DNA of 60,112 nucleotides from Candidatus Yanofskybacteria bacterium (lineage in GTDB: Bacteria > Patescibacteriota > Minisyncoccia > 2-02-FULL-40-12 > IGHO2-12-FULL-4). Each line of letters opens with the position of its first letter. Position 1 is the stretch's first letter. Positions 10,729 through 56,571 of the stretch are shown here, in pieces. Below the pieces are notes generated by a model. The model had not been told where the DNA came from. It made no database searches and saw nothing but the letters and a program-made list of their open reading frames with translations. A program made the position numbers and the translations under genes. Location of the stretch: NCBI GenBank assembly GCA_016181105.1, contig JACOZX010000018.1, positions 1 to 60,112 of the forward strand, written 5' to 3'.

Positions 10729-11712
10729 CTAATCTGTAAATATCTCAACCCAAATTGTTCCCGGTGTAAATTTTAATTCACCACCTTCGGCATCGTAAAA
10801 ATAAAGCTTCTCTTTGGCCGTAGTTTTTTTCCAGAAGCCTTTGATTTCTTGCCCGTTCTGGTAGAAGGTTGCTTCGCCGGAGCCGACGGTTTTTATTCGG
10901 ATGTAGTCTTTACTGACGGGAGACCATGTTGTTTTCATGAAAACAACATTTTCCGCCTCAACTTGTTTGGACGTGTTTTTGTCTGTTTCATCTTTCCCGC
11001 CGCGTTCCCGGCGGTATGTGTTATTGTCTGAGTCATATTCCCAAGACACCTGAAACTCGTCTTTATAAATTGCCGGCGGTTGTATATTGCCCAAACTCTT
11101 TGATTTTTTGTGCGGATATGAGCTAAGTGATTTGCTTAGTCCATACTCCAGACTGGCAACGGCTTTGTTTATAAGTTCCGGATTGGTGAAACCGTTGTGG
11201 GGGGGTTTTGCCTCCTTCTTTCTATAGTAAATTGTGCCGTCGTATTTCATGGCGTCTATGTTGTCAACCACTCCGCCGTTTAATTCTGCCAGCGCCTCTT
11301 TCTCTCCTCCCCAGTGGCTGTAAATCGCTCCCAAACCCTGAACCAAGGGTATAAAATCTAGGCGTGAGGATCTTATGGAGCCAATTTCTTTCGGCCAGTT
11401 GCATTGAAAAACAGCCATCATTCTGGTTACCCCGCCTTCTGTGACGGGCATTTCAAAAACGAAGTCAGCTTCACTAATTCCTGAAAGGGGTCTGGTTTCC
11501 GGATCAGAAGCTAACATGACTGCCAGCGGTCTGACTTTGGCTTTTTCGCATTTAACGCCGGAGAGATCTGACTCCGGGAAATTCATTCCTTCTATCACGG
11601 CCTCTCCTCTTTTGATCTCAATCTTATTGTTTCCGTAAAACAAAAACCAGCCGGCAATAAAGACAACGATTCCGGATCCAACCAAAAGTATTTTTGTTGT
11701 AGAAATTTTCAT
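10729..11712 (-). CDS. DUF3048 (YerB-like) membrane-anchored protein
   Basis: It has an N-terminal TM segment and the block RPLAVMLASDPETRPLSGISEADFVFEMPVTEGGVTRMMAVFQ. The ATG overlaps the polA stop (ATGA). Confidence 0.55.
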   Translation of the reverse strand: MKISTTKILLVGSGIVVFIAGWFLFYGNNKIEIKRGEAVIEGMNFPESDLSGVKCEKAKVRPLAVMLASDPETRPLSGISEADFVFEMPVTEGGVTRMMAVFQCNWPKEIGSIRSSRLDFIPLVQGLGAIYSHWGGEKEALAELNGGVVDNIDAMKYDGTIYYRKKEAKPPHNGFTNPELINKAVASLEYGLSKSLSSYPHKKSKSLGNIQPPAIYKDEFQVSWEYDSDNNTYRRERGGKDETDKNTSKQVEAENVVFMKTTWSPVSKDYIRIKTVGSGEATFYQNGQEIKGFWKKTTAKEKLYFYDAEGGELKFTPGTIWVEIFTD

Positions 11713-14393: not shown

Positions 14394-14407
14394 AGCTCGT
14401 CTGGGAA

Positions 14408-14481
14408 GAACCTCCGCAAGTGCCTCTTTTTTGCGTCGGACTGTCGCCGCCGAACTGCAAAAGAGGCACTTGCTTTGGTTC
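14408..14481 (-). repeat. B-type hairpin element (copy 3, reverse orientation)
   Basis: The stem GAACC..GCAAGTGCCTCTTTT / AAAAGAGGCACTTGC..GGTTC encloses the conserved loop, the reverse complement of GCAGTTCGGCGGCGACAGTCCGACGC. Confidence 0.8.
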
Positions 14482-14507
14482 TAAATAAAATCTTTTTTCG
14501 CGGAGGT

Positions 14508-14963: not shown

Positions 14964-15011
14964 TCCAAGGAGGCTCCTTGGACGGTTTTAAGCTCCTTGG
15001 ACGGTTTTAAG
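14964..15011 (+). repeat. REP-like palindrome TCCAAGGAGGCTCCTTGGA plus a 20-bp tandem duplication at the 3' end of the transposase gene
   Basis: The palindrome spans 14964-14982. CTCCTTGGACGGTTTTAAG is repeated at 14974-14992 and 14993-15011. The second unit encodes the C-terminus LKTVQGA. Confidence 0.8.
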
Positions 15012-15650
15012 CCTTAACCAATCTTTGTGAAAGTCAGAAAAGTCCTTCCTGTTCTTAAAATAATCTGGAAACTTTTCCAGACTTAAAATCGCTTTTTCAA
15101 CTCTTTGCTTGCCCAGATAATCTAAGGAACTTGAGTATTTGTAATTTTCAGCAAATGCTAGTGTTTTTTTGGTATCAATGATCCCGTTTTCTTTCCAACT
15201 TGGCTCAAGAACCTTCACTGGGTTAAGGTGAATGTACGCTAGTAAATATTTTAAATATCTGTCGTTGTCGACATGCTCTGCTTTAAAAGGCTTTTGAAAC
15301 AGTGAGCCAACGCGTTCATATTTTTTATTAAAATACATTGCGTAACTAGTTGTGAGTTTCTTCATAAAATTTGTAAGTCCGCCTTCTTTTATTTCTTTAA
15401 CTAAAATATGAAAATGATTAGGCATCAAAACATAAGCCCCAACAGCAATCAGTCTCTCCCCCAAACCTACCTTATCCAAGGAGGCTCCTTGGGAGGTTTT
15501 AAAAACAACAGCTTTTGTTCCGTTTGCTAACCGTAGCGTCTTAGAAAACCTTTCGTAGTCCCTTGTCTCCTGAAATATTTTTCTCTTTTCAACACCACGG
15601 TTGTAGACATGGTAATATTCACCTACTGCGAATTTAATTTTGCGCTCCAT
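14988..15650 (-). CDS. IS200-like Y1 (HUH) transposase, REP-associated (RAYT-like)
   Basis: 220 aa with YHVYNRG, MPNHFHILV (HUH) and YIHLNPVK (catalytic Tyr region). It is flanked by copies of the same palindrome. Confidence 0.8.
   Translation of the reverse strand: MERKIKFAVGEYYHVYNRGVEKRKIFQETRDYERFSKTLRLANGTKAVVFKTSQGASLDKVGLGERLIAVGAYVLMPNHFHILVKEIKEGGLTNFMKKLTTSYAMYFNKKYERVGSLFQKPFKAEHVDNDRYLKYLLAYIHLNPVKVLEPSWKENGIIDTKKTLAFAENYKYSSSLDYLGKQRVEKAILSLEKFPDYFKNRKDFSDFHKDWLRLKTVQGA
15475..15492 (+). repeat. REP-like palindrome copy inside the transposase CDS
   Basis: TCCAAGGAGGCTCCTTGG, translated as part of KTSQGASLDKV. Confidence 0.75.
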
Positions 15651-15679
15651 AATATAAGTATAACAGATAGTTTCTAAAA

Positions 15680-15717
15680 TCCAAGGAGGCTCCTTGGATA
15701 CGGCTCTTTGGATACGG
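15680..15717 (+). repeat. REP-like palindrome copy upstream of the transposase start, with a short tandem repeat
   Basis: TCCAAGGAGGCTCCTTGGA is followed by TACGGCTCTTTGGATACGG. Confidence 0.8.
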
Positions 15718-16923: not shown

Positions 16924-17194
16924 CTCTTTCTCACTTTCTGCCCGTTTTGGGCTGAAAACCTTGTTTTTTAAGATCTATACTGTACTTATATTATAGCAGT
17001 TTTTAACCACCCAAGTCAATGGCTTAAAAGTCCTTATTTTTCAAGGGTTTCATAGGTAAAAAAGACATTAAGGTCGGACCTTTTTAAAGATTCAAGGTCC
17101 GACCTCGGGAACATTTAATTGGGTAAAATATGGAAGCGTAGCAGATACAAGTGGAGCTATAATTTATGGAGCAGGTAGTGACTCTGAGGGCAGT

Positions 17195-17286
17195 AAAAGT
17201 TGCGAGGGGCACGGTTTGTCAACGACCCCTCCCCAGTTTTTCAAAGTAAAACTGGGGAGGGGATCTTGACAAGACGAGCAACTTTT
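17195..17286. repeat. long composite hairpin in a 460-bp intergenic region
   Basis: The perfect 15-bp stem CCCCTCCCCAGTTTT/AAAACTGGGGAGGGG is extended by TTGTCAA/TTGACAA and AAAAGTTGC/GCAACTTTT. Confidence 0.7.
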
Positions 17287-17375
17287 TCTGATGAAGAATC
17301 CTCGCTGGGGATTCTGAAGTCCCGAAGAGGCGCTACTGCGGAATAAATTTTAGGGAAAATCGGTAACAAAAAAAA

Positions 17376-21122: not shown

Positions 21123-21506
21123 TCAGCGGAAATCTGCCAAGGCATTTTTAAAATGCAACACCTTTGCCTTACTGTCAAGTTTGTTGACTATTATAGACAA
21201 GATGTCAACTCGCCACTCTTTTTCATTATTTTGTTTTTGACTATTTAAGTACAAGCTGGCGGTTCTGATAATGTGGCTGGCTTTTTTGGGGTTAACTCTT
21301 AATTCCGGACCAAAACTGCTTCCAAATTCTTTGCTGTTCGTTTTGACTTCGCAAAAAACGGTTACTCCTTCTTTTTCGGCAATTATATCTATCTCGCCCC
21401 AAGGTTTTCGGTAATTTCTGGCAATTATTCTATATCCCCTGCTTTCCAAGTATCTGGCGGCGATATTTTCACCCAGAAAACCAATTTTTTTGTTATCGTT
21501 AGGCAT
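21123..21506 (-). CDS. yraN: YraN family (UPF0102) endonuclease-like protein
   Basis: 127 aa with GENIAARYLESRGYRIIARNYR..GEIDIIA. Confidence 0.8.
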   Translation of the reverse strand: MPNDNKKIGFLGENIAARYLESRGYRIIARNYRKPWGEIDIIAEKEGVTVFCEVKTNSKEFGSSFGPELRVNPKKASHIIRTASLYLNSQKQNNEKEWRVDILSIIVNKLDSKAKVLHFKNALADFR

Positions 21507-21516
21507 AAGTAGTTTT

Positions 21517-21699
21517 AAGTTTGGATGATTATTACTTTTTCCGGACGTTCGTTTTCCCCAGCGAGGAAAACTTCACTCGTTGCAGTCTGTGGATTCCCGA
21601 CCAGAGTCGGGACATAGCCATCGATGGCTATGCAACCTGCCTGTCGGCAGACAGGTCCACAGCCTGCAGCGCCTACAAAAGCAATAATCATCCAAACTT
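21517..21699 (+). ncRNA. A-type structured element, copy 1 (unclassified ncRNA or structured MITE)
   Basis: A 23-bp closing helix with one mismatch. The conserved core is TTTTTCCGGACG..CCAGCG loop..GCAGTCTGTGG/CCACAGCCTGC, with three internal hairpins. Confidence 0.7.
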
Positions 21700-23732: not shown

Positions 23733-23893
23733 TTGCGCCAAACGGTAATGTTGGTTATGCCAGGCGCTGTGCCAAGTGGCGCTGTGGTGTGCCATTGGCG
23801 CAATGACTTGGCGCTATGTTGTGCCACCGCTGTGCCAAGTGGCACTAGCGCCAAAAGTTTTGGCACTAGTGCCAATTGTTTGGCGCTATGCCA
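23733..23893. repeat. dense array of TTGGCRC/GYGCCAA half-sites (iteron- or operator-like)
   Basis: Nine exact half-sites lie within ~160 bp. They include the palindromes GCGCCAAAAGTTTTGGCAC and GTGCCAATTGTTTGGCGC and the duplicated units CTGTGCCAAGTGGCRC and TTGGCGCTATG. Confidence 0.75.
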
Positions 23894-23927: not shown

Positions 23928-25326
23928 TTATTTAATGTGATTGGCGGTTATGGTGTCGTTGTTTTCTAAATCAGCGATTGTCCGGCTTATTTTCAACATA
24001 CGATGGTAGCCTCGGCCTGAAATGCCATGTTTTTCAACAAATCTGCCGAGTATCAGTTCGGCCTCCGGTTTTAAATTACAAATTTTGTGTATATTCCTAA
24101 AACCTACTTCGGAGTTGGTGAGTAAATTATATTTTTTTAGTCTTTCCGCTTGAATTTCTCTTGCTTTTTCAACCTTTTTCCTTAATTCCAAAGAAGATTC
24201 TGAAGACCGGGTGTCTTTGAGGTTGGCAAATGTTTCGCGCGAAACATAAACCTGGATATCTATCCGGTCTAAAAGAGGACCGGAGATCTTTTTTTTGTAT
24301 CTTATGACATTTGCTTGCGGGCAATAACAAGTTTCCGTTTCACTGCCGAAGTTTCCGCAGGGACAAGGATTCATGGAAGCCACAAGCATAAATCTGGCCG
24401 GAAAATGACCGGAACCGGAGGCTCTGGCAACTGTCACCGAGCCTTCTTCCATGGGTTGTCTTAAAGATTCTAAGACATTTCTTGGGAATTCCGGCAGTTC
24501 GTCCAGAAAAAGCACTCCTCTGTGAGCCAAACTAATCTCGCCGGGGCGGGGGATAGAACCGCCGCCGATAATTCCCGGAGCTGAATAAAATAGTTGCTAA
24601 AGCTTTGGCCAGTATAGTCTTTCCTGAACCGGGCGGACCAAACATTAAAATATTGTGGCCACCGGCGGCGGCCACTAAAAGCGCTCTTTTGGCTCCTTCT
24701 TGGCCTTTAATATTGGCAAAGTCGTAGTCGCTTTCCTGTTTGTCAGAGCTAATCTGATGAAAAGAAGTTTGTTTTTCAGGCTCAATTTCAATCTCACTTT
24801 TTAAGTAAGAAACCAGTTCTTTTAAGTTGTTAACCCCAACAACTCTAATGTCGTTTACCAAGGCTGCCTCCTTAGCGTTCAATTTGGGTACCAGGATCTC
24901 ATAAAAGCCCATTTTACTGGCTAAAACTGCCATAGACAAGATACCGTTAATCGGTCGCAAGGAACCGTCTAAAGAAAGCTCGCCGGCAAAAAGGCGAGCT
25001 TTCTTTGGGTCTATTTTTACTTGCAAAGTTGCTGCCAGGTAGCCTACGGCAATCGGCAAGTCAAAAGACGAACCCTCCTTTTTTATGCTAGCCGGGGCCA
25101 GATTGACTATAATCCTTAAGTTTTTTGACTTTGGATTGGCAAAACCGCTGTTTCTAATGGCCGAATCCAACCTGTCTTTAGATTCCTCAACACTTTTGTC
25201 GGGCAAACCGACAATGTTGAAAAAATGCAGTCCCGGGAAGGAGTCAACCTCAACATCAATTTTTACCGCATCCAAACCGTTTAAAGCGGCGGAAGAAACC
25301 ATTACAGACATATTTACTCCCCCCAT
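23928..25326 (-). pseudogene. comM: Mg-chelatase-like competence protein ComM/YifB, internally deleted and frameshifted
   Basis: The N-terminal ORF ends ..GPPGSGKTILAKALATILFSS. The C-terminal ORF resumes in another frame at GIIGGGSIPRPGEISLAHRGVLFLDE. About 45 residues normally found between these blocks are absent. Confidence 0.75.
24230..24247. repeat. C-type palindrome ATGTTTCGCGCGAAACAT inside the comM coding sequence
   Basis: A perfect 18-bp palindrome, translated as YVSRETF. Confidence 0.85.
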
Positions 25327-25335
25327 AGTTAGTTT

Positions 25336-25361
25336 AAAAATGTTTCGCGCGAAACATTTTT
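25336..25361. repeat. C-type palindrome AAAAATGTTTCGCGCGAAACATTTTT (possible bidirectional terminator)
   Basis: A perfect 26-bp palindrome between the dksA-like stop and the comM start. Confidence 0.85.
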
Positions 25362-25731
25362 AGGCTGATCTTGGTTTTTGTCTGGCACAATCCATGCAAA
25401 ACTTAGCTACGGGCATAACTTTTAGACGAGTTGGGGCAATTTCCACAGAACAAGTTTCACATTGGCCGTAAGTGCCTTCTTTAATTTTTTCAATAGTCGA
25501 TCTAATATCTCTTAATCTTGTCACGAGGTTGTTTTTTAGTATATTCAGTCTTTCAAATTCTTCTATTTCTCTCGCATTCTCGTCAATACCGGAGCCTTCA
25601 TTAGGAAATGGCACGATAAAACCATCCTCGGTATTAGGGTCTTTTTTAGCGAAAGCAGCCAACTCCGATAGTATTTCGTTTTCTTCTTTTCGCAGGCTCT
25701 CTAAAAGTTTTTGTTGTTCATCTTTAGTCAT
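25360..25731 (-). CDS. DksA/TraR family C4-type zinc-finger protein
   Basis: CETCSVEI..(17 aa)..CMDC at the C-terminus with a coiled-coil N-terminal part. The start is placed at the ATG. Confidence 0.7.
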   Translation of the reverse strand: MTKDEQQKLLESLRKEENEILSELAAFAKKDPNTEDGFIVPFPNEGSGIDENAREIEEFERLNILKNNLVTRLRDIRSTIEKIKEGTYGQCETCSVEIAPTRLKVMPVAKFCMDCARQKPRSA

Positions 25732-30450: not shown

Positions 30451-31017
30451 CTAATACATCAAAAACTTCTTGGGATCTTCGCCTAAGTCGGTGAAGACGT
30501 CTACCGTTTCTTTAAGCCTTGCCGATGTGCTTCTTCCAAATGAAACCGCTTCTACCTTCAAGCCGCGGTTGACGCGGAGATATTCAACTAAGGGGATAAA
30601 ATCGCCGTCTCCGGTAACTATGACAGCCACATCAATTTTGTCGGCTAAAATGATAGCATCAATGGCTATGCCGACGTCCCAGTCAGCTTTTTTCATGCCT
30701 CCGGGAAAAATCTGCAAGTCTTTTATCTTAATCTCGTAACCGCTTTTTTCCAGAGCTTCCAAAAAAGCCTTTTCTTCGCCTGATTCCGTCTTAATGACAT
30801 AGACGAAAGCGCGGATGAGCTGGCGGCCGTTGACCGCCGCTTCCAGGATTTTTTTAAAGTTAGCTTTGGCGTGGTAAAGATTTTTGGCCGAGTGGTACAT
30901 GTTTTGGGCGTCAACAAAAACGCCAACACGCTGGTGTTGGGTCGTCCCAATGTTGAGACTATGTTCTGTCGGCCTTTTGGCTTGGCTTGTTACTCGTCCC
31001 TTATTTCCTTTGACCAT
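30451..31017 (-). CDS. NYN-domain (LabA-like) putative RNase
   Basis: 188 aa with GVFVDAQNMYHSA, DVGIAIDAI and VIVTGDGDFIPLVEYL. Confidence 0.75.
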   Translation of the reverse strand: MVKGNKGRVTSQAKRPTEHSLNIGTTQHQRVGVFVDAQNMYHSAKNLYHAKANFKKILEAAVNGRQLIRAFVYVIKTESGEEKAFLEALEKSGYEIKIKDLQIFPGGMKKADWDVGIAIDAIILADKIDVAVIVTGDGDFIPLVEYLRVNRGLKVEAVSFGRSTSARLKETVDVFTDLGEDPKKFLMY

Positions 31018-31297: not shown

Positions 31298-31442
31298 CTT
31301 GAAAAATGGCCTGATTATAGTATTAAGTTTAGCATAGATTTTTGGTTGAGGCAAATGAGGAGGGGGGGGGAAGCTTCGCTAATGTTACTTTTTCCGATTA
31401 ATTGTGCGACTTATGTTTGTGAGATATAATTATATGCATGCC

Positions 31443-31507
31443 CCGTAGTGAAAACTCGAGACACTGCGGAGCAGTCAAACTAATTAACACTCGAGTTTCT
31501 ACTACGG
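31443..31507 (+). promoter_or_regulatory. 18-bp-arm hairpin in the xer leader that overlaps the Shine-Dalgarno sequence
   Basis: CCGTAGTGAAAACTCGAG..29 nt..CTCGAGTTTCTACTACGG (16/18 paired). The right arm runs into GGAGG-ATG at 31506-31515, and a TATAAT lies at ~31425. Confidence 0.5.
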
Positions 31508-31512
31508 AGGAT

Positions 31513-32372
31513 GGCAGACATTAAGCAACTCAAAAACGATTTTCTGGAGTATCTGGAAATAGAGAAAAACCGTTCGCCGAAGACGGTGGAAAATTACGGA
31601 CATTATCTTAACCGGTTTTTGAATTTTGCATCTGACAGATAGTCATGGCGAATCCTTAAAAAAAGTTACTCAAAACTACCATATCATCGCCATCCGCGCT
31701 TTTTTGAAATATTTATCAAAAAGGGAAATTAAGTCTGTCTCGCCTGAAAAAATAGAGCTGGGCAAGCAAGAAGATCGGCATATTGATTTTTTAGAGTCAA
31801 ACGAATTGGCAAGACTTCTTGCTTCGCCAAAAGGCGATGACCTGCCCAGTCTGCGCGATAAAGCTATTTTGGAAACTTTATTCAGCACCGGCTTGCGTGT
31901 TTCGGAACTTTGCTCTTTAGAAACGGACAAGGTGGACTTGAACAGGGGAGAGATATCTGTCAAAGGCAAGGGCTCTAAAATCAGACTGGTCTTTTTATCA
32001 GACGATGCCCAAAAAGCAAACCGGGCATATTTGAAAAAACGCAGCGATGCCGATACCGCGTTTTTTATTCGGATTCCCAAAGATCAAAGATTTGGTAAAT
32101 ATGAAAACCTGGGACTAACTCCCCGCAGCGTGCAAAGGATAATAAAAAAGCACGCAACGCGCGCCGGAATTGTCGGTAAAAAAGTCAGTCCGCATTCTCT
32201 TCGCCATAGCATGGCCACCGACCTTCTAAGAAACGGCGCCGATATTCGCTCCGTTCAAGCAATACTCGGCCACTCATCTGTTACCACAACTCAAATCTAC
32301 ACTCATGTAACCGACAGCGGATTGAAAGAGGTACACAAAAAGTATCATAAAAATAAAGTCACCGAAAGTTAA
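31513..32372 (+). pseudogene. XerC/XerD-family tyrosine recombinase with an interrupted N-terminal core-binding domain
   Basis: MADIKQLKNDFLEYLEIEKNRSPKTVENYGHYLNRFLNFASDR stops at a TAG near 31642. The rest continues in another frame from ~31626 (LHLTDSHGESLKKVTQNYH..). The catalytic residues are intact (LRVSEL, HSLRHS, GHSS, IYTHV). Confidence 0.7.
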
Positions 32373-33506: not shown

Positions 33507-33669
33507 AAACACCTCACAAAAAAACTTTGTTGAAAGTTAACTACAAGTTTTCAAATTTCTATACTCTAATTATACCAAATTTTGACCACTTTTGTCAATG
33601 GTTCGGCGAACTTGCCACTAACAACCAAAAAAGCCTATTTTTAAGGCTTTTTTGGAATATCTAATTTTA

Positions 33670-33871
33670 GAGCTTGGGCGAATAATGCTTTTGTAGGCTC
33701 TGTAAGCTGTGGATTGCTCGCGAGCCGCTTTTTCAGCCCATTCAGCAGAATAAGATGAAAAAGTGGCGAGCTGGTCGGAAAGTATTCTTTCCGAATCCAT
33801 AGCTTACAAAGAGCGAGCTTTTTCGCTGGAAAAAAGCGAGCGTCCGGAAAAAGCATTATTCGCCCAAGCTC
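33670..33871 (-). ncRNA. A-type structured element, copy 3
   Basis: The closing helix is GAGCTTGGGCGAATAATGCTTTT/AAAAGCATTATTCGCCCAAGCTC. It has the same core as copies 1 and 2, with compensated stems. Confidence 0.7.
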
Positions 33872-34763
33872 AACTCTTCAACTCTTCTATCCCATCAGCC
33901 AATCTTACCGTCGGCTTCCAGCCAAGAAGTTTCTTGGCCAAACTAATATCAGCCAAAGTTAATCTAGCTTCTCCTTTTCTTGGCGCAATAACTTTTGTTT
34001 TACTCCCAATCATTTTTGCTACTTCAACAACCGAATGATTTTCCCCACTGCCGATATTTATGACTTCTCCTTTGCCGACTTTGCTTGACTTCATAGCCGC
34101 AAGATTGGCGGCGACCACATCTCGGACATGAGTAAAATCTCTCCTCTGTTTGCCGTTAGGAACTATGGTCAGCGGCTGGCCGGCTTTGTTTTGCTTTAGA
34201 AAAATTCCGATTACAGTAGCATAAGCGTCTTCGCAAGTTTGCCTCGGACCATAGACATTAAAATATCTCAAACAAACAACCGGCAATCCATAGAGATGAT
34301 TGAAAAGTTGGCAGTACATCTCGCCCATGTATTTTTGCATGGCATAAGGATTGAGGGGATTGGCAATCATATCTTCCCGTAAGGGCATGGTTTTTTGCAG
34401 GCCGTAAGCCGAAGAAGAAGCAGAGTATATAAATTTTTTAACGCCGGCTTCTTTGGCGGCAAGCAAAACATGCAAGGTGCCGGTTAAGTTTGCATCGTGA
34501 GAAGTTTTTGGATCTTTGATTGAAGGCTGGATTCTGGGCTGGGCGGCTAGGTGAAAAACAACTTCGGCTTTTTTGAAGATGGGCCTGATTTTGTCCAGAT
34601 CAACAATGCTTAAATTGTGAAATTTGGCCTTGGGGTTGAGGTTTTCTTTTTTTCCAGTTGAGAGGTTGTCTATGACATGAATGTCCTTGTGGCCTTGCTT
34701 GACCAACTCATCAACCAAATTTGAGCCGATAAACCCGGCTCCGCCGGTAACAATGATTTTCAT
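33870..34763 (-). CDS. NAD-dependent sugar-nucleotide epimerase/dehydratase (SDR family)
   Basis: MKIIVTGGAGFIGSNLV and the catalytic-type YAMQKY. Confidence 0.85.
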   Translation of the reverse strand: MKIIVTGGAGFIGSNLVDELVKQGHKDIHVIDNLSTGKKENLNPKAKFHNLSIVDLDKIRPIFKKAEVVFHLAAQPRIQPSIKDPKTSHDANLTGTLHVLLAAKEAGVKKFIYSASSSAYGLQKTMPLREDMIANPLNPYAMQKYMGEMYCQLFNHLYGLPVVCLRYFNVYGPRQTCEDAYATVIGIFLKQNKAGQPLTIVPNGKQRRDFTHVRDVVAANLAAMKSSKVGKGEVINIGSGENHSVVEVAKMIGSKTKVIAPRKGEARLTLADISLAKKLLGWKPTVRLADGIEELKS

Positions 34764-34787
34764 AATTTAAATATACAGAACAATTAC

Positions 34788-34849
34788 GCGAGTATGCCTG
34801 TTTCTTGCGCCGGACTGTCGCCGTCGAACTGCGAAACAGGCATACTCGC
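34788..34849 (-). repeat. B-type hairpin element (copy 4, reverse orientation)
   Basis: The stem GCGAGTATGCCTGTTTC/GAAACAGGCATACTCGC surrounds the loop, the reverse complement of GCAGTTCGACGGCGACAGTCCGGCGC. Confidence 0.8.
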
Positions 34850-34874
34850 TTCATTTACAAAAATTATCAATTTG

Positions 34875-34947
34875 TATCCCCAGGAGGGCTTGAACCTCCA
34901 ACCTTCAGCTCCGCAAGCTGACGCTCTTCCAATTGAGCTATGGGGAC
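34875..34947 (-). tRNA. tRNA-Arg (anticodon GCG)
   Basis: Hand-folded cloverleaf: GTCCCCA TA GCTC AATTGGAA GAGC G TCAGC TTGCGGA GCTGA AGGTT GGAGG TTCAAGC CCTCC TGGGGAT A. Confidence 0.8.
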
Positions 34948-34953
34948 AGCATG

Positions 34954-35490
34954 TTACATGCCCAATTTTCTGGTAATAACTTCAATCAAGGTATCTTCGT
35001 GCCGCTCCTCCGGCAAAAGACCCAATAGCATATTGCGGATTTCTGTGGGACTTTCTTGTCCGACAAGAGGAAGTTTGATGTAAGAGCGATGCCAACCTTT
35101 GTGCTTAAAGCTAAGCTCTTTAAGAAATGGGGGATCATACTCAATCCAAAAAGATTTCAAGTGTCTGTAAAGATAAGCCTTTCCGTCTAACACCAAACCT
35201 CTTTGATTTATCTCCCAAGCCACATCTTTCTTCTCCTGCATTCCTAAAATAACCATAACTGTTGCAATCAAAAAAAAGAATATGGCGGTAACGGTGTTTT
35301 GAGAAATAAGCAGATAGAGCAGGCCGACTAGGGCTAAAACAGAGACTATGGCTGTCAGCAATGATTTGTTTACAAACTGATAATGAGCGGGTATGCGGCC
35401 GGAAATTTTTGAAGGCAAAGCTGTTTCACTATTTTCAACATTCTTTTTTCTCAAGTCTAAGATTTGAGACATGCTTAAATCTAACACCAC
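34954..35490 (-). CDS. hypothetical membrane protein
   Basis: 178 aa with two adjacent TM segments followed by a soluble domain. Confidence 0.5.
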   Translation of the reverse strand: MVLDLSMSQILDLRKKNVENSETALPSKISGRIPAHYQFVNKSLLTAIVSVLALVGLLYLLISQNTVTAIFFFLIATVMVILGMQEKKDVAWEINQRGLVLDGKAYLYRHLKSFWIEYDPPFLKELSFKHKGWHRSYIKLPLVGQESPTEIRNMLLGLLPEERHEDTLIEVITRKLGM

Positions 35491-35498
35491 ACACGCTT

Positions 35499-36926
35499 TT
35501 AAGGAAGAGCCGGTTGTTTACCGGCAAGAAAATCAAGAAAAACTTTTTCCCCAGCCTCTTCTTTTTTACCTTCCGGCCGGCGTTCGGGAATAAAAAGCTT
35601 TGAGCAAAAATACTGTAAATTGGAAATATCGCCCTTTTCGCCTTTTGGGTCAATAACAAACTTTGCCAGCTCTTCAATTATTCTTTTCAGTCGGAACCTT
35701 TTGATTATAAGGCTGTTTGAGGAGATTATTTTGCCCCTCGATTCAACTTTAGGAATGTAAACACAGCCTTTTTCTTCCAGTGTTTTTGTGTATTGCTCAC
35801 GGATTTCTTTGGGCAGACTTTTCGGGGATTTTTCCAAGAGCGTTTCAAACTCTTCTTCAGAGTAAAAACTTGGGTAAAAATCTGACGGCGGAAGATTTAA
35901 ACCTTCCACTTTCTCGGTTATTTTTATGCCGAGTATTCTTCTGATTCCGGCCACAATTTCTGCGCCCATAACATCAGACCAAATATCTATCTCTCCTTCG
36001 GTTTTACCGGCAAACTGTTTTAAGTTTTCTATATCTGAAACAATTTCTGTGATCAAGGGCGCGGTAATGAAGTTGTAAGTTCTGCTTTTGATTTTAAGAA
36101 TTTTGGGTATCTGAAAGTTTTCATATCTTCTCAAAGCAGAAAAATATAACGGCCGGATATTCTGGAGAACTGTAGTGCTTTTTTTATTTCTAAACCGGTC
36201 AATTTGAGACAAGGCTTTTGGCAAATGATTGCCGGACAGATGAGCGTCGCCGATATGGACAAACAATTTGGCTTGCGGATGCTTTTCCGCAATAGCCGCA
36301 ATTTTTTCGGCGAAAAATTTGTCTTCCAGATCTTGTTCGCCGCTCTCGGCTTGAAACTTTATGCCGTAGACTTTAATTCCAAGCTTTTTGGCTGTTTCCA
36401 ATATTTTTTTATAACCCGGCCAATGTTCCATGTCCCCCCATTCAAGAAAATGAGATCTTTTTAAAAATAGCTCTTCATCTATCTGGCCGGACATGAACTC
36501 TTCTATCGCTTTCTGGTGTTTGGGCGAAATAAATTCTAAGGCTAAAACCGCCTGACCCGATTGCGGTTGAGCCGCTCTTTCTATAAATTCGGCTGAAAAT
36601 TCCTGGTTTCTTCTTAGGTTGTGGCGGTCTCCAAGGAAAACGATATCCGAATTTCTCGCTTCAGCTTCAACTTTTTGGGCTTCGGCCGGCTGTTCAAAGT
36701 TGCGAAATTCTTTGTAAAAATCTTTGAGGTATTTTTCCAGTTCGGGATCTTTGTCGGCCACATTTTCGTCCAAGCCAAAACAAGTGGCCTCGTAATTTTC
36801 AAACCACTTTATTGTTTCCAGCAGGTTATCCAAAATCTTTTTCTCGTTTGCTTTCAATTCACCAACTCTTTCTTGAGGCTTTGTCTTGGGCTTTTCTATG
36901 GCGTTTGTTTTTTCCGGTCTAATCAT
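35499..36926 (-). CDS. hypothetical protein, possibly ChaN/Tiki-like
   Basis: 475 aa. The only hint is IVFLGDRHNLRRNQEF. Confidence 0.35.
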   Translation of the reverse strand: MIRPEKTNAIEKPKTKPQERVGELKANEKKILDNLLETIKWFENYEATCFGLDENVADKDPELEKYLKDFYKEFRNFEQPAEAQKVEAEARNSDIVFLGDRHNLRRNQEFSAEFIERAAQPQSGQAVLALEFISPKHQKAIEEFMSGQIDEELFLKRSHFLEWGDMEHWPGYKKILETAKKLGIKVYGIKFQAESGEQDLEDKFFAEKIAAIAEKHPQAKLFVHIGDAHLSGNHLPKALSQIDRFRNKKSTTVLQNIRPLYFSALRRYENFQIPKILKIKSRTYNFITAPLITEIVSDIENLKQFAGKTEGEIDIWSDVMGAEIVAGIRRILGIKITEKVEGLNLPPSDFYPSFYSEEEFETLLEKSPKSLPKEIREQYTKTLEEKGCVYIPKVESRGKIISSNSLIIKRFRLKRIIEELAKFVIDPKGEKGDISNLQYFCSKLFIPERRPEGKKEEAGEKVFLDFLAGKQPALP

Positions 36927-37029
36927 ACCCGAATCTTAACAGTTGAAGCTGTGAAAATCAAAGTTTACTTTTTGTCAGCTTTTTGTATAGTTACAAAAGC
37001 TCTCTTTGTCTTAGGAAAACGGAGCGAGG

Positions 37030-37386
37030 ATGAGGATTTTAAATATTGTCGGACTTTTGATTTTCTTTGGTTCAATGTTTGGCATGTTTGTTTTTATAAG
37101 GGGAGCGGACCCTAGTCCAAGCCTGCTTTTGCTGTTTCTTGCGACTTTTATCGGAGGAGCTGTTCTCGCTGTTTGGGCGCAGAATAAAAAATTTCCCGAC
37201 AGATTTTTTATGCTTGCTCTGATTTCCGGATATTTAAGTTTTGTTTTTTTTGGTTTCGCCAGAGTGGCCAGAACGGTTTCTTTAGAAGAAGCTATGCCGT
37301 TTCTTGTGCTTGCGGTATTGATGGGCATTTGTTCTGTTGTCTTCGGGATTAGTTCTGACGAAGTTAAGAAAAAGAAAAACGAGTAA
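37030..37386 (+). CDS. hypothetical membrane protein (3-4 TM)
   Basis: 118 aa, strongly hydrophobic, followed by a terminator. Confidence 0.55.
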   Translation: MRILNIVGLLIFFGSMFGMFVFIRGADPSPSLLLLFLATFIGGAVLAVWAQNKKFPDRFFMLALISGYLSFVFFGFARVARTVSLEEAMPFLVLAVLMGICSVVFGISSDEVKKKKNE

Positions 37387-37392
37387 ATTTAA

Positions 37393-37415
37393 AGCCCGCA
37401 AATGCGGGTTTTTTT
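37393..37415 (+). terminator. rho-independent terminator
   Basis: AGCCCGC-aaat-GCGGGTT followed by a T-run. Confidence 0.7.
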
Positions 37416-37419
37416 GTTG

Positions 37420-37437
37420 GCGGTGGGTGGAGGAGTC
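37420..37437 (-). repeat. duplicated 3' end of tRNA-Ser(TGA), with CCA
   Basis: GCGGTGGGTGGAGGAGTC is identical to 37556-37573. The copy is preceded by TG, so it reads ..ACCCACCGCCA on the minus strand. Confidence 0.85.
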
Positions 37438-37556
37438 TCCTTCGCCTCTCGGCTTGCCGTCGCTCGCCTCGGGCTAGGCACCGCCTCGCGGTTTCGCCTG
37501 CTGGCTCAACATCGCTCCGGCGTTCGACTCCTCACGCAAAATAAGCAGTTATTTTG

Positions 37557-37638
37557 CGGTGGGTGGAGGAGTCGAACCTCCAAGGGCTTGCGCCCGTCGG
37601 TTTTCAAGACCGATGCCATGCCATTAGGCGAACCCACC
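37557..37638 (-). tRNA. tRNA-Ser (anticodon TGA)
   Basis: Hand-folded: GGTGGGT TC GCC TAATGGCAT GGC A TCGGT CTTGAAA ACCGA CGGGCGCAAGCCCTT GGAGG TTCGACT CCTCC ACCCACC G. It has a long variable arm and no encoded CCA. Confidence 0.9.
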
Positions 37639-37658
37639 GAGTTTTTCAGTAAACGCAA

Positions 37659-37913
37659 TCAATAAATGTTGTGCTTGCCGACAGCATAAAATCTTATGAT
37701 ATTCTTGTCGGCAAAATCAAATATTATCCGGTACTGATGATTTATAGAAAAAGCCCAAAACTCATTAAGTTCACCGTGAAGTTTGTGGGTTTTGGGGTGC
37801 AAATCAAACGGGTTTATTCTAAAAATTTTCTCTTTTTTTGTTGCCAGCGACTTGATCTCTTTGGGCAGTTTCTTAAATTGCTGTTTAAACTTGGAGTAGT
37901 AAAATATCTTCAT
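37659..37913 (-). CDS. RelE/YafQ-type toxin of a type II toxin-antitoxin pair
   Basis: 84 aa with HKLHGELNEFWAFSINHQYRIIFDF..FYAVGKH. Confidence 0.7.
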   Translation of the reverse strand: MKIFYYSKFKQQFKKLPKEIKSLATKKEKIFRINPFDLHPKTHKLHGELNEFWAFSINHQYRIIFDFADKNIIRFYAVGKHNIY

Positions 37914-37918
37914 TCTAC

Positions 37919-38128
37919 CTATTCCAAATCTCCCAGAGATTTAAGGATTTTCCAATTCTTGCCTTTGCCAAAATCCCTCTTAGCTTTTTCAAGTTCTTTA
38001 GCCAGTTCGTGGACACGCAAAAGATGGCGAAAGAACTCGCTGACACTGGCAAAGTTGCCAGTTTTTACTTCGTCCCTAACTTTTCTTGTTAGTTCTTGGG
38101 GCAAGGATATGTTAATGATGTTTCTCAT
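37919..38128 (-). CDS. ribbon-helix-helix antitoxin
   Basis: 69 aa with INISLPQEL..FASVSEFFRHLLR, ending 5 nt upstream of the toxin. Confidence 0.65.
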   Translation of the reverse strand: MRNIINISLPQELTRKVRDEVKTGNFASVSEFFRHLLRVHELAKELEKAKRDFGKGKNWKILKSLGDLE

Positions 38129-38285
38129 GGTTGTAATAATTTATATTACAATTCTAACAAAAATTAAGAGAGAGGTCAAATTCTAGTGCATGATCCGGCA
38201 TTCGCCAAGACTTCCAAGACTTCCATGATTCGTTGATTTTTCAAGAGATCCTTGATAGTCTGACGATTGAATTCTTCCAATCCTT

Positions 38286-39038
38286 ATGACTATTAATATC
38301 ATCTCCCATCGCGGGTCCGGCGTCGGCGCACGTGAGAACACGGTCGCGGCATTTGCCGCAGCGTTGAAGCAGGGCGCACACAGTTTTGAGTGCGACGTGC
38401 GCTTCACGCGAGATCTTAAACCTGTTATTCACCATGATTTCACCGCTCTGTCACTCTTCCGCAAACTTACCCCGATTAAGCGGCTTACACTGGCTCAGAT
38501 TCAGCATCTGTCCACATATCACGACGCCTCGGTAAACAGTCTCGACGATGTCCTCAACTTTCTGGGCTTCACGAATGCCCAATGTTATCTCCATCTTAAG
38601 GACGTTTCCCGACTACCTGTTCTTGGCATTCTGCGACAGATCGAGAGGTCTCACTTGGCCGGTCAAATGTTTTTTGTGATACCCGGATCTGAATATGGGA
38701 GGCTCCAGTCCTTTGGCGTCAACCCGAATCGTATAGTTGTGATGGTGCCGTACCCTTTTTTCCGCTTTGGGCACAATATAGCCAGAAGTGTGTGTCACGA
38801 GGTTGCCTTACTTGCGCCGCCTGGCATCCTTAATCTTGATGCTGCCTTCTTGCGACTTGTTGAGACGGCCAGCGGACAAGCCCGTGCAGTGGGCCATCGT
38901 GTAAGTGTTGGCCTAGGCGATACCGTTTCCACACTGCAGTGGTTAAGCGCCCTCCCGGTCGATGGTATCTGGACCAATCAACCCGTTCTTTGTAACGACG
39001 TCTTGCAGCGTGCGGCCAGACTCGACATAGCTGTATGA
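38286..39038 (+). CDS. glycerophosphodiester phosphodiesterase family protein (GC-rich island 3)
   Basis: IISHRGSG..RENTVAAFAAALKQGAHSFECDVRFTRDLKPVIHHD. Confidence 0.75.
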   Translation: MTINIISHRGSGVGARENTVAAFAAALKQGAHSFECDVRFTRDLKPVIHHDFTALSLFRKLTPIKRLTLAQIQHLSTYHDASVNSLDDVLNFLGFTNAQCYLHLKDVSRLPVLGILRQIERSHLAGQMFFVIPGSEYGRLQSFGVNPNRIVVMVPYPFFRFGHNIARSVCHEVALLAPPGILNLDAAFLRLVETASGQARAVGHRVSVGLGDTVSTLQWLSALPVDGIWTNQPVLCNDVLQRAARLDIAV

Positions 39039-39655
39039 CAACAACTGATACAAGGTCGATCCTTATCATTCATGGTGCCATAGTCCGCAGTTCGACGCAT
39101 CGATGGCTGAAAGAAATGCAGACTCACTTTGTCAGTCGGGGAGTCTCGGATGTCAGAGTCTTTCACTGGAGCGGCCATGTGACGGTCCGTGCCATAGAGA
39201 AAGCCAGTGATGAGTTATCGCAGTTGCTTGACGACTGTAATCAGTCGGTGCGTGTGCTTGCAAAGAGCACTGGAGCTCTTGTCTTCCGCTCGGCGGTTCG
39301 AAAGTTATGCACGAAGTCGGCTGCAAGACAATTTGACCTTCTTCTTCAAGTTGCCGCACCAAACTCAACTGCGCCCGAGCCGAGTCTGTGTAATGTGAGA
39401 AGGATTGTGAACATCTATTCGCGTGATGACTAGTTTCTGAAATTCTTTCTACGGTTCGGACCAGTGTTCAGGCGTTACACACAGATGTTATACATGTCAG
39501 AGGCTGTTGGCGTGACCACTGTAGAGAATATTCAGGTTCCAGGCATAGGTCACAATACATTCAATTGGAATGTTCACATTACTGAAGGTGCGTTCGCGGG
39601 TAGGCACCTATATGATGTCTATTTCGACTTGTTGAATGGTGGCGCCGTGCCGTGA
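39035..39655 (+). pseudogene. alpha/beta-hydrolase-like ORF interrupted by one in-frame TAG (39431-39433)
   Basis: ORFs 39035..39433 and 39464..39655 share a frame, and the 10 codons between them contain no other stop. The start overlaps the GDPD stop (ATGA). Confidence 0.55.
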
Positions 39656-39688
39656 GGCTTCCTTTGTCCACCTGCAAAATCATGATTG

Positions 39689-39706
39689 GCGGAGGGAGTG
39701 GGAGTC
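39689..39706 (-). repeat. duplicated 3' end of tRNA-Ser(GCT), with CCA
   Basis: GCGGAGGGAGTGGGAGTC is identical to 39877-39894. The copy reads ..TCCCTCCGCCA on the minus strand. Confidence 0.85.
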
Positions 39707-39877
39707 CTCTTCCCTCGAAAATTTCTGATGCCTAAGGGCATATCGAAATTTTCTCCTCCAGAGCCTGGGTTTTCGAAAAAGTGAAACTATTCACTTTTTC
39801 TCAATACCCTTCGACTCCCGCTCTTGCATCGACAAGTAGCATAAATAGTTAGCAAAAGCTAACTATTTGTGTACATG

Positions 39878-39963
39878 CGGAGGGAGTGGGAGTCGAACCC
39901 ACATGACCTCTTTCAAGGTCGGAGATTAGCAATCTCCTGCACCAGCCATTATGCGCCCCCTCC
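39878..39963 (-). tRNA. tRNA-Ser (anticodon GCT)
   Basis: Hand-folded: GGAGGGG GC GCA TAATGGCTGG TGC A GGAGA TTGCTAA TCTCC GACCTTGAAAGAGGTCAT GTGGG TTCGACT CCCAC TCCCTCC G. Confidence 0.9.
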
Positions 39964-39964
39964 A

Positions 39965-40231
39965 CTACTTATATATTTCGTCTCTTTTAGCTATTTTAAG
40001 TATGGATATTTCCTTTCTGTTTTTGATGATGTCAAAAATCACCCTATATTCTCCTATTCTAAAACGAAAACTTCCCAATTCATTATTTACCAATTTCTTT
40101 GCAAACTTCAAAGGATTGTTCAAAGTAAAAAAGCGCACCTTGCCGGCTATGCGCCTTTGAATAACTGATGAAAAACGCTGCAAATCGTTTAATGCCTGCT
40201 TGGTATAAATTGTCTTCCACTCAAATGCCAA
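39965..40231 (-). CDS. RelE/ParE-family toxin
   Basis: C-terminal LGSFRFRIGEYRVIFDI..ISILKIAKRDEIYK. A TTG start overlaps the antitoxin stop. Confidence 0.65.
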   Translation of the reverse strand: MAFEWKTIYTKQALNDLQRFSSVIQRRIAGKVRFFTLNNPLKFAKKLVNNELGSFRFRIGEYRVIFDIIKNRKEISILKIAKRDEIYK

Positions 40232-40424
40232 GGTTGTGAAGGACTTTTTCTTGAGGAACAGCCTCTCCTCTTTTTGTTTGTTCTCTAGCGAAAGCAATGT
40301 CTTTTGCGTGTTTGGCGTACTTTTCAAGCATGGCAAACTTTTCATCAAGCTTTTTAAGGCGTTTTTTTATTTCATCTTTCTCTCTTGAGACTGTTTTGAT
40401 TTGATTGGACAAAACTTGATTCAT
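40221..40424 (-). CDS. antitoxin partner (small, coiled-coil)
   Basis: A 67-aa ORF immediately upstream of, and overlapping, the toxin. Confidence 0.5.
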   Translation of the reverse strand: MNQVLSNQIKTVSREKDEIKKRLKKLDEKFAMLEKYAKHAKDIAFAREQTKRGEAVPQEKVLHNLGI

Positions 40425-40464
40425 GGTCCAATGTTAACAACTTCTTGAGCAAAAAACAATAGGG

Positions 40465-41217
40465 CTAGCCTTTGGCAACGACTAAACCGATTACTTTTTC
40501 TGCGCCCGCCTCTTTCAATATTCTGGCGCACTCGTCTAGGGTTGCTCCGGTGGTGGTTATGTCGTCAACCAGAAGTATAGTTTTGTTTTTTATCTTTTCC
40601 GGCTGACGGCAAATAAATATCCCCTCTGTGTTTTTTATCCTTTCTTCTTTGTTTTCTATCTCCGCTTGAGGCTTTTTACTCTTTATCCTGTCCAATACGT
40701 CAACGGCAATTTCTAATTTAAATTCCCCGGCTAACTCATCAGCTAAAAGTTCTGACTGATTGTAAGAGCGCCAGTTAAGCCTTAACCGGTGCAAGGGCAG
40801 GGGAACGAGGACAATCTCGCTTCGGTAACTGTCAAAAAAGCGGTCTTTGTTTTTTTGTTTTAAAAACCTTATCAGGAGTCTGCCAAGAGGCGCTTTTGTT
40901 GAGGATATGAACTTGTATTTTAAAGCCCAAAGCATTTTTTTGACTAGAGGTTCTTCGTAACTGGCGGCTATCCAGATAAAATCTAAAAAGTGGTCCTTCC
41001 TGCAAAACGGACAAGTTTCGCCTTGGCTTGTGGGCGAGGCGCAGAAGGCGCACTCAAAACCTTTTCTAATATTGATTCTTTGAAAACATGGCTGGCACGA
41101 GTATTTATCCGGATCGTCTGCGTTTTGGATTTTGTTACAACCCAGACAATGAATAGGGAAGAATAGATCAAAGAAAAAGTCTTTTAAGCTTGCTATGGAT
41201 AACTTGAGTAACTTCAT
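40465..41217 (-). CDS. comFC: ComF family phosphoribosyltransferase-like competence protein
   Basis: N-terminal Cys clusters (CLGC..C..C, CAFC..CPFC) and a PRTase loop LLVDDITTTGATL. Confidence 0.8.
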   Translation of the reverse strand: MKLLKLSIASLKDFFFDLFFPIHCLGCNKIQNADDPDKYSCQPCFQRINIRKGFECAFCASPTSQGETCPFCRKDHFLDFIWIAASYEEPLVKKMLWALKYKFISSTKAPLGRLLIRFLKQKNKDRFFDSYRSEIVLVPLPLHRLRLNWRSYNQSELLADELAGEFKLEIAVDVLDRIKSKKPQAEIENKEERIKNTEGIFICRQPEKIKNKTILLVDDITTTGATLDECARILKEAGAEKVIGLVVAKG

Positions 41218-48645: not shown

Positions 48646-48683
48646 GAAGTGTAAAGTATAAAGTTTAAAATTATTGTTATCAT

Positions 48684-48704
48684 AAAACCGCCTTAGGCGG
48701 TTTT
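48684..48704 (+). terminator. rho-independent terminator after the pilin gene
   Basis: AAAACCGCC-tta-GGCGGTTTT. Confidence 0.7.
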
Positions 48705-48720
48705 ATGATATAATTGCCAA

Positions 48721-49533: not shown

Positions 49534-49599
49534 GAGGCCGGAAAAGAGGCCGTAATTGATTACTGCTTTTAACAAAAACAACGAAAGAGATTTTAATTA

Positions 49600-49672
49600 G
49601 AACCGAAGCGAGCGCCTCTTTTGCAGTCGACGGCGACAGTCCGACGCAAAAAAGAGGCGCTCGCGAAGGTTC
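49600..49672 (+). repeat. B-type hairpin element (copy 1)
   Basis: GAACCGAAGCGAGCGCCTCTTTT-GCAGTCGACGGCGACAGTCCGACGC-AAAAAAGAGGCGCTCGCGAAGGTTC. Confidence 0.85.
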
Positions 49673-49680
49673 GCACTAGT

Positions 49681-50671: not shown

Positions 50672-50699
50672 ATGTCAACAAGGAAACCAATTTTAGTTA

Positions 50700-50838
50700 G
50701 AACCGAAGCGAGCGCCTCTTTTGCAGTTTCTCGTCGAAGGTTCCGATCGGCCGAATCCGAAGGATTCATAGCCGATAAATCGGAATCGATGTTGGCGGCG
50801 ACAGTCCGAAGCAAAAAAAGAGGCGCTCGCGAAGGTTC
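50700..50838 (+). repeat. B-type hairpin element (copy 2) with an ~85-nt extra insert in the loop
   Basis: The arms match copy 1. The loop additionally carries nested hairpins (GAATCC-gaa-GGATTC, CCGAT-aa-ATCGG). Confidence 0.85.
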
Positions 50839-52221: not shown

Positions 52222-54458
<2,237 letters not shown>

Positions 54459-55114: not shown

Positions 55115-55167
55115 TAAAAAATCCCTCATCACTTTTTAAAAAAAGTGGCGGGGGATTTAATTTTGTC

Positions 55168-56548: not shown

Positions 56549-56571
56549 GTTCAAACTCACAAAGTTAACCC

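Follow-up and report, generated by a model that had tools for sequence, protein, structure and literature searches.

A structured, non-coding interspersed repeat superfamily in a narrow clade of Patescibacteria

The stretch of DNA analysed here, a 60,112 nt contig of a Candidatus Yanofskybacteria bacterium (assembly GCA_016181105.1, contig JACOZX010000018.1; hereafter the window), carries three copies of a structured element that represents a previously undescribed, real and well-supported repeat superfamily of a narrow clade of the Candidate Phyla Radiation (CPR). The unit is 170–260 nt long, and about 100 copies beyond the three in the window were found in approximately nine Patescibacteria (Paceibacteria-like) metagenome-assembled genomes (MAGs) and metagenomes, at a density of about one per 5–20 kb within this very narrow clade. 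With slightly more confidence than doubt, we take the copies to be a lineage-specific superfamily of non-coding, non-autonomous interspersed repeats, mobile or recently mobile, in a narrow clade of Paceibacteria. Their fold is best described as being maintained because copying, harmless residence inside transcripts, or both depend on it.

Fold and covariation

An earlier reading of the window, made from the sequence alone (the sequence-only reading), had placed the element at 21517-21699 (+ strand; copy 1), 52222-52448 (+; copy 2) and 33670-33871 (-; copy 3). All three copies are present with the sequences it described, as are the motifs that it listed: a closing helix, TTTTTCCGGACG-YTCG, a 7-bp stem whose loop is CCAGCG, an 11-bp helix with GGATT at its end, inner hairpins and AGMGCCTWCAAAAR. 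At 0 mismatches, the window contains exactly three occurrences of the 14-mer core, and all three copies are intergenic. A covariance model (CM) built from 16 copies gave copies 1, 2 and 3 scores of 142, 201 and 222 bits on these strands, as against 25–27 bits on the opposite strands.

The closing helix, P0, measures 23, 24 and 23 bp in copies 1, 2 and 3, respectively, as found by an inverted-repeat search, and it encloses a three-way junction. Its consensus comprises 16–22 variable base pairs and GCUUUU/AAAAGC, followed by an internal loop UCC/UNC and then GG/CC. The 7-bp stem, P1, carries the loop UCCAGCG and a GC..GC extension, and the long helix, P2, has the consensus CUUUGYRRSCUGUGGAU / AUCCACAGSYYRCAGAG. 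Of the inner hairpins, the first is closed by UC..GA, the second has a conserved tip (CUUAUYCG...CGRAUGGG) that includes two tandem U.G pairs, and the third is optional across the family. A further U.G pair closes the P1 loop and, like the tandem pairs of hairpin 2, can pair on the annotated strand only. The invariant single-stranded motifs are UUUUUCCGGACGCUCG, the hairpin loop UCCAGCG, UGUGGAUUC, GCAAUCCACA and GCCUNCAAAA. Folded as RNA, copies 1, 2 and 3 reach minimum free energies of -88, -127 and -103 kcal/mol (z = -9.9, -14.9 and -11.2), and none of 200 shuffles folded as well as the real copies.

That the helices are under selection for pairing is not in doubt. The 16-sequence alignment shows double-sided changes in 44 of 67 pairs, with 92.7% of cells paired (73.9% when shuffled) and a covariation score of 0.50, compared with approximately 0.1 for slid-partner controls. 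In the alignment of the 117 CM hits (A7), which was fitted to the model and hence leans towards structure, double-sided changes are seen in 61 of 67 pairs and 92.5% of cells are paired versus 68.4% in shuffles, none of 500 of which reached the real value. These double-sided changes and the excess of paired cells bear out the argument of the sequence-only reading that selection acts on secondary structure. The compensated P1 stems that it quoted (GTTTTCC/GGAAAAC, GTTTTCT/AGAAAAC and GCTTTTT/AAAAAGC) were correct, as were the variants of hairpin 1 and the change from GCAG..CTGC to GTAA..TTAC in the 11-bp helix; that helix is present as described but is not fully paired, usually containing one internal mismatch (T.C, A.A or C.A). 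The shuffles, CM scores and covariation together rule out chance or a low-complexity artefact.

In copy 1, which is of type A, the 5′ arm of P0 (AAGTTTGGATGATTATTACTTTT; 21517-21539) pairs with the 3′ arm at 21677-21699. The conserved 5′ junction TCCGGACGTTCG follows at 21540-21551, then the P1 hairpin at 21551-21572 (invariant CCAGCG loop at 21558-21563) and the 5′ strand of P2 (..TTGCAGTCTGTGGATT; 21577-21595), whose partner is 21654-21671. Three inner hairpins, the second of them shortened, fill 21596-21653, and the 3′ strand of P2 with the 3′ junction CCTAC spans 21654-21676, all on the + strand. Copy 2 (+) has its P0 arms at 52222-52245 and 52425-52448, the junction at 52246-52257, P1 at 52257-52279, the P2 strands at 52282-52300 and 52402-52419, and the inner hairpins at 52301-52401. 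The corresponding parts of copy 3 (-) are P0 at 33849-33871 and 33670-33692, the junction at 33837-33848, P1 at 33815-33837, P2 at 33794-33812 and 33698-33715, and the inner hairpins at 33716-33793.

Distribution of the family

When one genome per species was scanned with an exact pattern, matches to the element were confined to Patescibacteria MAGs, on several contigs each, and an independent pattern for the 3′ end returned the same approximately nine MAGs plus approximately 25 chance matches elsewhere. A looser first pattern gave chance matches in GC-rich genomes, with locus L027 the only real one. One metagenome scan contributed 60 more loci, approximately 45 of them real, and the covariance model made 117 matches in the collected loci, often two or three per 8–14 kb. 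No copies were found in the viral contigs, phage records and plasmids searched, and a phage or plasmid origin was rejected.

The carrier MAGs are labelled Paceibacterota, Yanofskybacteria, Nealsonbacteria, ‘Saccharibacteria’ or ‘bacterium’, and the window is 80–86% DNA-identical to Paceibacterota SMAG_U8024. The MAGs CAZOKW01 and CAYZNJ01, named ‘uncultured Candidatus Saccharibacteria’ (L123, L126, L131 and others), carry the same repeats. Since they share 70–76% DNA identity with the window in polA and other genes (polA 72–76%) and have these repeats in common with it, their ‘Saccharibacteria’ label is doubtful and, judged by these sequences, probably wrong.

The element had been called unclassified, and the Rfam searches agree. 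At the gathering threshold, Rfam 15 returned three tRNAs only over the window; at E<=0.05 nothing in the whole window matched at the elements, and copy 1 at E<=10 drew only spurious matches far below gathering. Known RNA families (tRNA-like, 6S, SRP, RNase P, riboswitches, self-cleaving ribozymes, group I/II introns, HEARO and others) were thus set aside for want of a match in Rfam 15. A search of the literature, including queries with sequence strings, found no relevant description of the element.

Evidence for mobility

That the element might be mobile was one of two readings put forward from the sequence alone, and it gains direct support from presence/absence at syntenic sites, near-identical cores at unrelated loci, fragments and subfamilies. 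In L123, a full copy stands between a polA-like gene and the gene next to it, two genes that in the window overlap by ATGA at 11709-11712. A full copy at L135:817-1046, in a related genome, corresponds in the window to a decayed remnant only (TAATGTTACTTTTTCCGA; 31380-31397, +), and a type-B copy found in both L131 and L124 corresponds to plain, empty spacer at 56530-56596. These comparisons of empty and filled sites were made at about 72–80% identity.

Cores that are 92–98% identical lie beside unrelated genes in different genomes, and within one MAG near-identical cores sit in different P0 helices (L206/L216), with similarity falling sharply at GC-TTTT and AAAA-GC. The copy 1 ortholog in SMAG_U8024 (L129) has kept the flanks and outer helix around an interior of another subtype, which suggests conversion between copies. 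A half copy and an internally deleted copy also exist (L131:243-372 and L192). Type B (CTTCGGACGCTYG) is shorter, is without hairpin 2 and scores 50–97 bits, and the shorter relatives grouped as type C score 34–47 bits. Among the latter is a distant relative in the window at 17156-17353 (-; 34 bits, E 2e-8), built of a closing helix, a CTTCGGGAC junction, a hairpin with the CCAGCG loop, a long helix and CCCTCAGAG, and approximately 90% identical to L027:956-1107 and L161:2545-2697.

No direct repeat indicating a target-site duplication (TSD) was found outside the helix in 45 copies; a duplication of TA or another target was rejected, as TA...TA occurs at some copies but is inconsistent across them. 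Terminal inverted repeats (TIRs) conserved in sequence across copies were not found, the arms having a loose consensus only. In approximately 180 loci, no 5′ core was paired with a distant 3′ core, as would be expected of a parent insertion sequence (IS) with the same ends, and the 5′ cores that lack a 3′ core all proved to be contig ends, truncated copies or members of subfamily B, and an autonomous version bearing an open reading frame (ORF) was rejected on these grounds. No protein family or transposase recurs beside the copies, the flanking genes being housekeeping genes.

A family of mini-hairpins (family D) was also observed in the window at 14403-14487, 34777-34861, 49594-49678 and 50694-50844, and outside it at L155:7919-7989. 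Each consists of a conserved 27-nt core, TTGCGTCGGACTGTCGCCGYCGAACTGCAA, enclosed by a 23-bp stem of variable sequence that ends in ..GCCTCTTTT / AAAAGAGGC..; the copy at 50694-50844 carries an extra structured insert, and all four window copies have the same orientation relative to their flanking genes. Family D is possibly a deletion derivative of the type-B elements.

Placement relative to neighbouring genes

Copy 1 stands in a divergent spacer, 10 nt from the ATG of a YraN/UPF0102 gene on the - strand (21123-21506), with the promoter of an M23 peptidase gene downstream of it. Copy 2 occupies the spacer between an ORF at 51865-52218 and ligA (52458-54458), both on the + strand. Copy 3 starts inside the TGA stop codon of an epimerase gene (33870-34763), and downstream of it lie an intrinsic terminator (about 33625-33655) and then the next promoter. 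Across the family, the upstream stop codon of sense copies ends -2 to +3 nt from the start of P0 in approximately 10 copies, and the next ATG, without a Shine-Dalgarno sequence, lies 2–10 nt past the last base pair of P0 in approximately 10 copies. In co-directional contexts, sense copies outnumber antisense copies 21:6, and 45:16 in a larger set, a 3:1 preference for sense. No conserved promoter of their own was found around the copies, copy 1 having only that of the downstream gene, and terminators lie downstream in only 5 of 42 copies; any RNA would therefore have to be processed from mRNAs. A role as terminator was rejected, given that no T-run follows the helix and that terminators, where present, are further downstream, and an outward promoter in the AT-rich inner helix was rejected as not conserved.

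These observations invite the alternative that the copies are a new functional structured RNA, situated in operons and 3′ untranslated regions (UTRs) and released by cleavage of P0, for example by RNase III. In this version the core with its three-way junction would serve, in cis or in trans, as a protein scaffold, ribozyme or regulator, and each copy would be useful. We consider this a serious alternative, though a doubtful one. RNase III requires two helical turns, and the mean P0 length of 21.7 bp is compatible with this by length; covariation in every helix and the invariance of the junction and loop nucleotides also speak for a functional RNA, although no Rfam ribozyme or RNA family matches and no promoter is conserved. 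Copy 3 lies between stop codon and terminator, and it differs from its ortholog L135b at 3 positions in 201 nt (98.5% conserved), with P0 identical, where the adjacent coding sequence is approximately 12–17% diverged and the spacer just downstream approximately 45%. Against this, copies are gained, lost, truncated and internally deleted, and the family is confined to approximately nine species-level genomes. Likewise, the bias towards the sense orientation is offset by the roughly one quarter of copies that run antisense to their neighbours.

The strandedness of the fold bears on the same question. The hairpin 2 tandem U.G pairs and the U.G pair closing the P1 loop, which form only on the annotated strand, favour a functional RNA. 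Outside these three invariant pairs, however, mismatches at variable helix positions in alignment A7 comprise 120 A.C and 55 G.U on the annotated strand, whereas an excess of G.U would be expected if that strand alone worked, and it is the complementary strand that folds better in 36 of 42 copies. The A.C:G.U ratio is 39:6 in copies antisense to their neighbours and 49:39 in sense copies. The imbalance is thus strongest in antisense copies and all but gone from sense copies, which suggests that it matters which strand is transcribed; a baseline A.C excess remains. Simple strand-biased mutation was rejected as its cause, there being no general G>A over C>T bias at conserved columns.

A possible DNA-level site

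The element could instead act as DNA, its folded strand or cruciform serving as the substrate of a structure-specific recombinase or replication protein that reads the pairing and a few bases. A tyrosine recombinase as on integron attC, an Xer-type enzyme or a single-strand initiation signal would be examples. We hold this to be unlikely. Pairing is indeed conserved without sequence, some mismatches are themselves conserved (internally in P2, and in outer P0 in the ACTACGCT subfamily), and the complementary strand pairs at least as well; but the pattern of mismatches shifts with the direction of flanking transcription, which points to RNA-level or transcription-linked effects. A gene for a short, 248-aa Phage_integrase-family tyrosine recombinase (31626-32372) lies beside the remnant in the window and, in L135 and L145, beside a copy, yet this link is one of adjacency in a genome where copies are dense. 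A probable replication origin inside the window also fits a DNA site: the cumulative GC skew has its minimum at about 38000-41000, where gene orientation changes from mostly minus on the left to mostly plus on the right, and these features together suggest an origin there. On the other side, attC core sites in the right order are wanting, an integrase or cassette setting is absent, and the adjacent genes have housekeeping roles.

The closing helix as part of the element

The sequence-only reading held the outer arms of P0 to be unique to each copy yet complementary, and offered, as one possibility, insertion of the element into the loops of intergenic hairpins that were already there. The arms are variable yet paired, as claimed: the outer 12–18 bp of each differ between copies, and the interior is the conserved part. 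They are not truly unique, since loose subfamily consensuses emerge across approximately 45 copies. One type of arm has the consensus AGYTTGG..WATTGC / GCAATW..CCAARCT and another AGCKTMGT...ACTACGCT, the latter subfamily having conserved outer P0 mismatches, and the arms grade into the invariant core. Because they are homologous between copies, P0 is part of the element and not a pre-existing host hairpin.

Insertion of a small structured core into host hairpins, with arms of host sequence, therefore appears highly improbable. The abrupt fall in similarity at GC-TTTT / AAAA-GC between near-identical cores in different closing helices would suit it, but gene conversion between copies explains such core swapping equally well; short hairpins with a similar ...CTTTT / AAAAG... 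stem top do exist (family D; L141:2610-2655), but three empty sites are without any hairpin of approximately 20 bp, which argues against insertion into pre-existing hairpins and at the same time demonstrates gain and loss. Empty closing-helix hairpins were looked for, and one doubtful case was found, at L141:2610-2655. This is a perfect 21-bp hairpin with an almost empty loop (AAGGTTCGACCAGGCACTTTTTGCAAAAAGTGCCTGGTCGAACCTT) and a stem top like that of type B/D elements; it represents either a relative that lacks the core or the outcome of a deletion.

Candidate enzyme and proposed mechanism

The window encodes a 220-aa Y1/HUH transposase-like protein (14988-15650, -) with the motifs YHVYNRG, PNHFHIL and YIHLNPV; it scores 36 bits against PF01797 and 43 bits against the RAYT model NF047646, the nearest NCBIfam model, whose cutoff of 80 it does not reach. 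A 17-nt palindrome, CCAAGGAGGCTCCTTGG, bounds the ORF at 14965-14981 and 15681-15697, delimiting an IS200-like unit (14965-15697), and the gene itself contains a third, in-frame copy at 15476-15492. Homologues are widespread in Paceibacteria, with 66 of 78 loci bounded by a lineage-specific palindrome as against 2 of 78 in the control; these palindromes are 20–35 nt long and are placed immediately behind the stop and approximately 55 nt upstream of the start. The substrates of Y1/HUH enzymes are folded single strands, and their action produces no TIR or TSD, a mode of working that suits the elements. As the flanking palindromes are unrelated to the elements, and CCAAGGAGGCTCCTTGG is absent from all elements and from 262 loci, the resident transposase was rejected as the cognate mobiliser and the Y1 link is a lead only.

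For the interspersed-repeat reading that we prefer, the following course may be envisaged. The unit would be copied via a folded single-stranded intermediate, which a trans-encoded enzyme would recognise by its structure and conserved junction; enzymes of the Y1/HUH transposase type, such as the one encoded at 14988-15650, are candidates for this part and not demonstrated partners. Copies would also exchange cores by gene conversion. Co-transcription with neighbouring genes would lead selection to keep P0 paired, so that the insert could form an RNA domain of its own, out of the way, with the stop codon upstream and the start codon downstream drawn close to each other. With stop and start thus adjacent, a 200-nt insert would not uncouple genes that overlap elsewhere. 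P0 may also serve as an RNase III substrate.

Several points weigh against this reading. Neither an autonomous copy nor a partner enzyme was identified; the Y1 gene is flanked by a different palindrome, one that none of the elements has. The wide occurrence of Y1 homologues in Paceibacteria also sits poorly with a repeat family found in approximately nine genomes only. The filled/empty pairs available, which bear on the exact insertion junction, are all <=90% identical. Transcription of the copies is deduced from their position alone, and the A.C excess is not predicted for sense copies by a co-transcribed RNA clamp. Finally, conservation of the unpaired junction nucleotides in all copies, and the close conservation of copy 3 between orthologs, would be expected of an RNA useful to the host as well.

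Comparison with known systems

The elements belong to no tested family and are in kind closest to REPIN, ERIC and Correia-type repeats, from which they differ in that their ends are set by pairing rather than by sequence and in that their branched core is conserved. With the REP/REPIN-RAYT systems of Proteobacteria they share an extragenic location, many copies per genome, the lack of coding capacity and a hairpin kept by compensatory change. In both, the unit forms one long hairpin without TSD or classical TIR and is vertically persistent, and a Y1 transposase-like gene is present in the genome. However, the element arms are neither self-palindromic nor built as an inverted REP doublet bearing a conserved 5′ tetranucleotide, the interior is a three-way junction, branched and conserved, of a kind wanting in REPINs, and the Y1 gene in the window is flanked by the unrelated palindrome CCAAGGAGGCTCCTTGG rather than by elements.

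ERIC/IRU of enterobacteria, Correia/NEMIS of Neisseria and bcr of the Bacillus cereus group are likewise units of 100–200 nt between genes inside transcription units, with termini that pair into a long RNA hairpin and, in some bcr families, compensatory changes. The terminal hairpin of Correia elements is an RNase III site. These families bear no sequence relation to the elements, whose interior is far more elaborate and is better conserved than the ends. Correia repeats moreover have conserved 26-bp TIRs and a TA duplication, whereas the elements show neither a conserved TIR sequence nor a TSD.

Palindrome-associated transposable elements (PATEs), miniature elements derived from IS200/IS605, are comparable in lacking TIR and TSD, in the importance of hairpins and strandedness, and in the presence of an IS200-like unit in the window; but a PATE has the hairpins of both ends, left and right, of its parent IS, and the elements have neither the palindrome of the resident IS200-like unit nor two end hairpins. 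Integron attC sites resemble the elements in conserving structure over sequence, in having some conserved mismatches and in that one strand apparently pairs better. They require R''(RYYYAAC)...R'(GTTRRRY), though, where the element arms read GTTTGG...CCAAAC, in the opposite order; there is also no integrase or cassette array, size and branched core differ, and it is housekeeping genes that flank the elements. Rfam's orphan structured RNA motifs, candidate large or medium ncRNAs discovered through comparative genomics, show a similar multi-helix junction with invariant junction nucleotides and abundant covariation, whereas the elements are not in Rfam 15, reach dozens of copies per small genome, and show insertion polymorphism and fragments. 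Unlike a classical MITE (miniature inverted-repeat transposable element), they have no sequence-conserved TIRs, no TSD and no parent IS, and unlike an independently transcribed small RNA gene they have no conserved promoter and terminator of their own, P0 abutting the stop and start codons.

Other features of the window

Near the remnant at 31380-31397, a run of nine G (31362-31370) adjoins it in the spacer between the S15 gene and the tyrosine recombinase gene, and a gene for an NYN-domain protein (predicted RNase; 30451-31017) adjoins the S15 gene. The 5′ UTR of the recombinase gene contains a long hairpin at 31437-31513 (CCCCGTAGTGAAAACTCGAG...CTCGAGTTTCTACTACGGAGG), the 3′ arm of which covers the GGAGG ribosome-binding site; this hairpin insert is missing from the orthologous L135 region. 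Three tRNA genes (Arg, Ser, Ser) lie at 34874-39963. Other strong intergenic hairpins occur at 23836-23878, 25325-25373, 48668-48721 and 55109-55169; one is a 21-bp near-perfect palindrome (CAAGTGGCACTAGCGCCAAAA/TTTTGGCACTAGTGCCAATTG), and three are AT-flanked stem-loops resembling bidirectional terminators, one with a spurious Rfam miRNA match.

Significance

The genomes of CPR/Patescibacteria are among the smallest and most streamlined known, yet this clade carries a 200-nt structured element every 5–20 kb, exactly between stop and start codons. The family provides a fold without an Rfam counterpart, documented by an alignment that exceeds 100 copies and in which every helix covaries. It also offers a natural experiment in which insertion inside operons is made harmless or useful by clamping the ends, and a candidate substrate for the palindrome-flanked Y1 transposase-like genes widespread in Paceibacteria.

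A bolder proposal, which we put forward tentatively, is that the elements constitute a new structured nucleic-acid class, whether an RNA excised from operons (a ribozyme or a CPR-specific ribonucleoprotein scaffold) or a mobile element defined by its fold and copied single-stranded. If so, these minimal genomes would devote 1–3% of their DNA to it. Should the RNA be processed or catalytic, it would be among the first lineage-specific structured RNAs described for CPR bacteria. If the elements are purely selfish, structure-defined repeats of the REPIN type would exist far outside Proteobacteria, in a more elaborate form.

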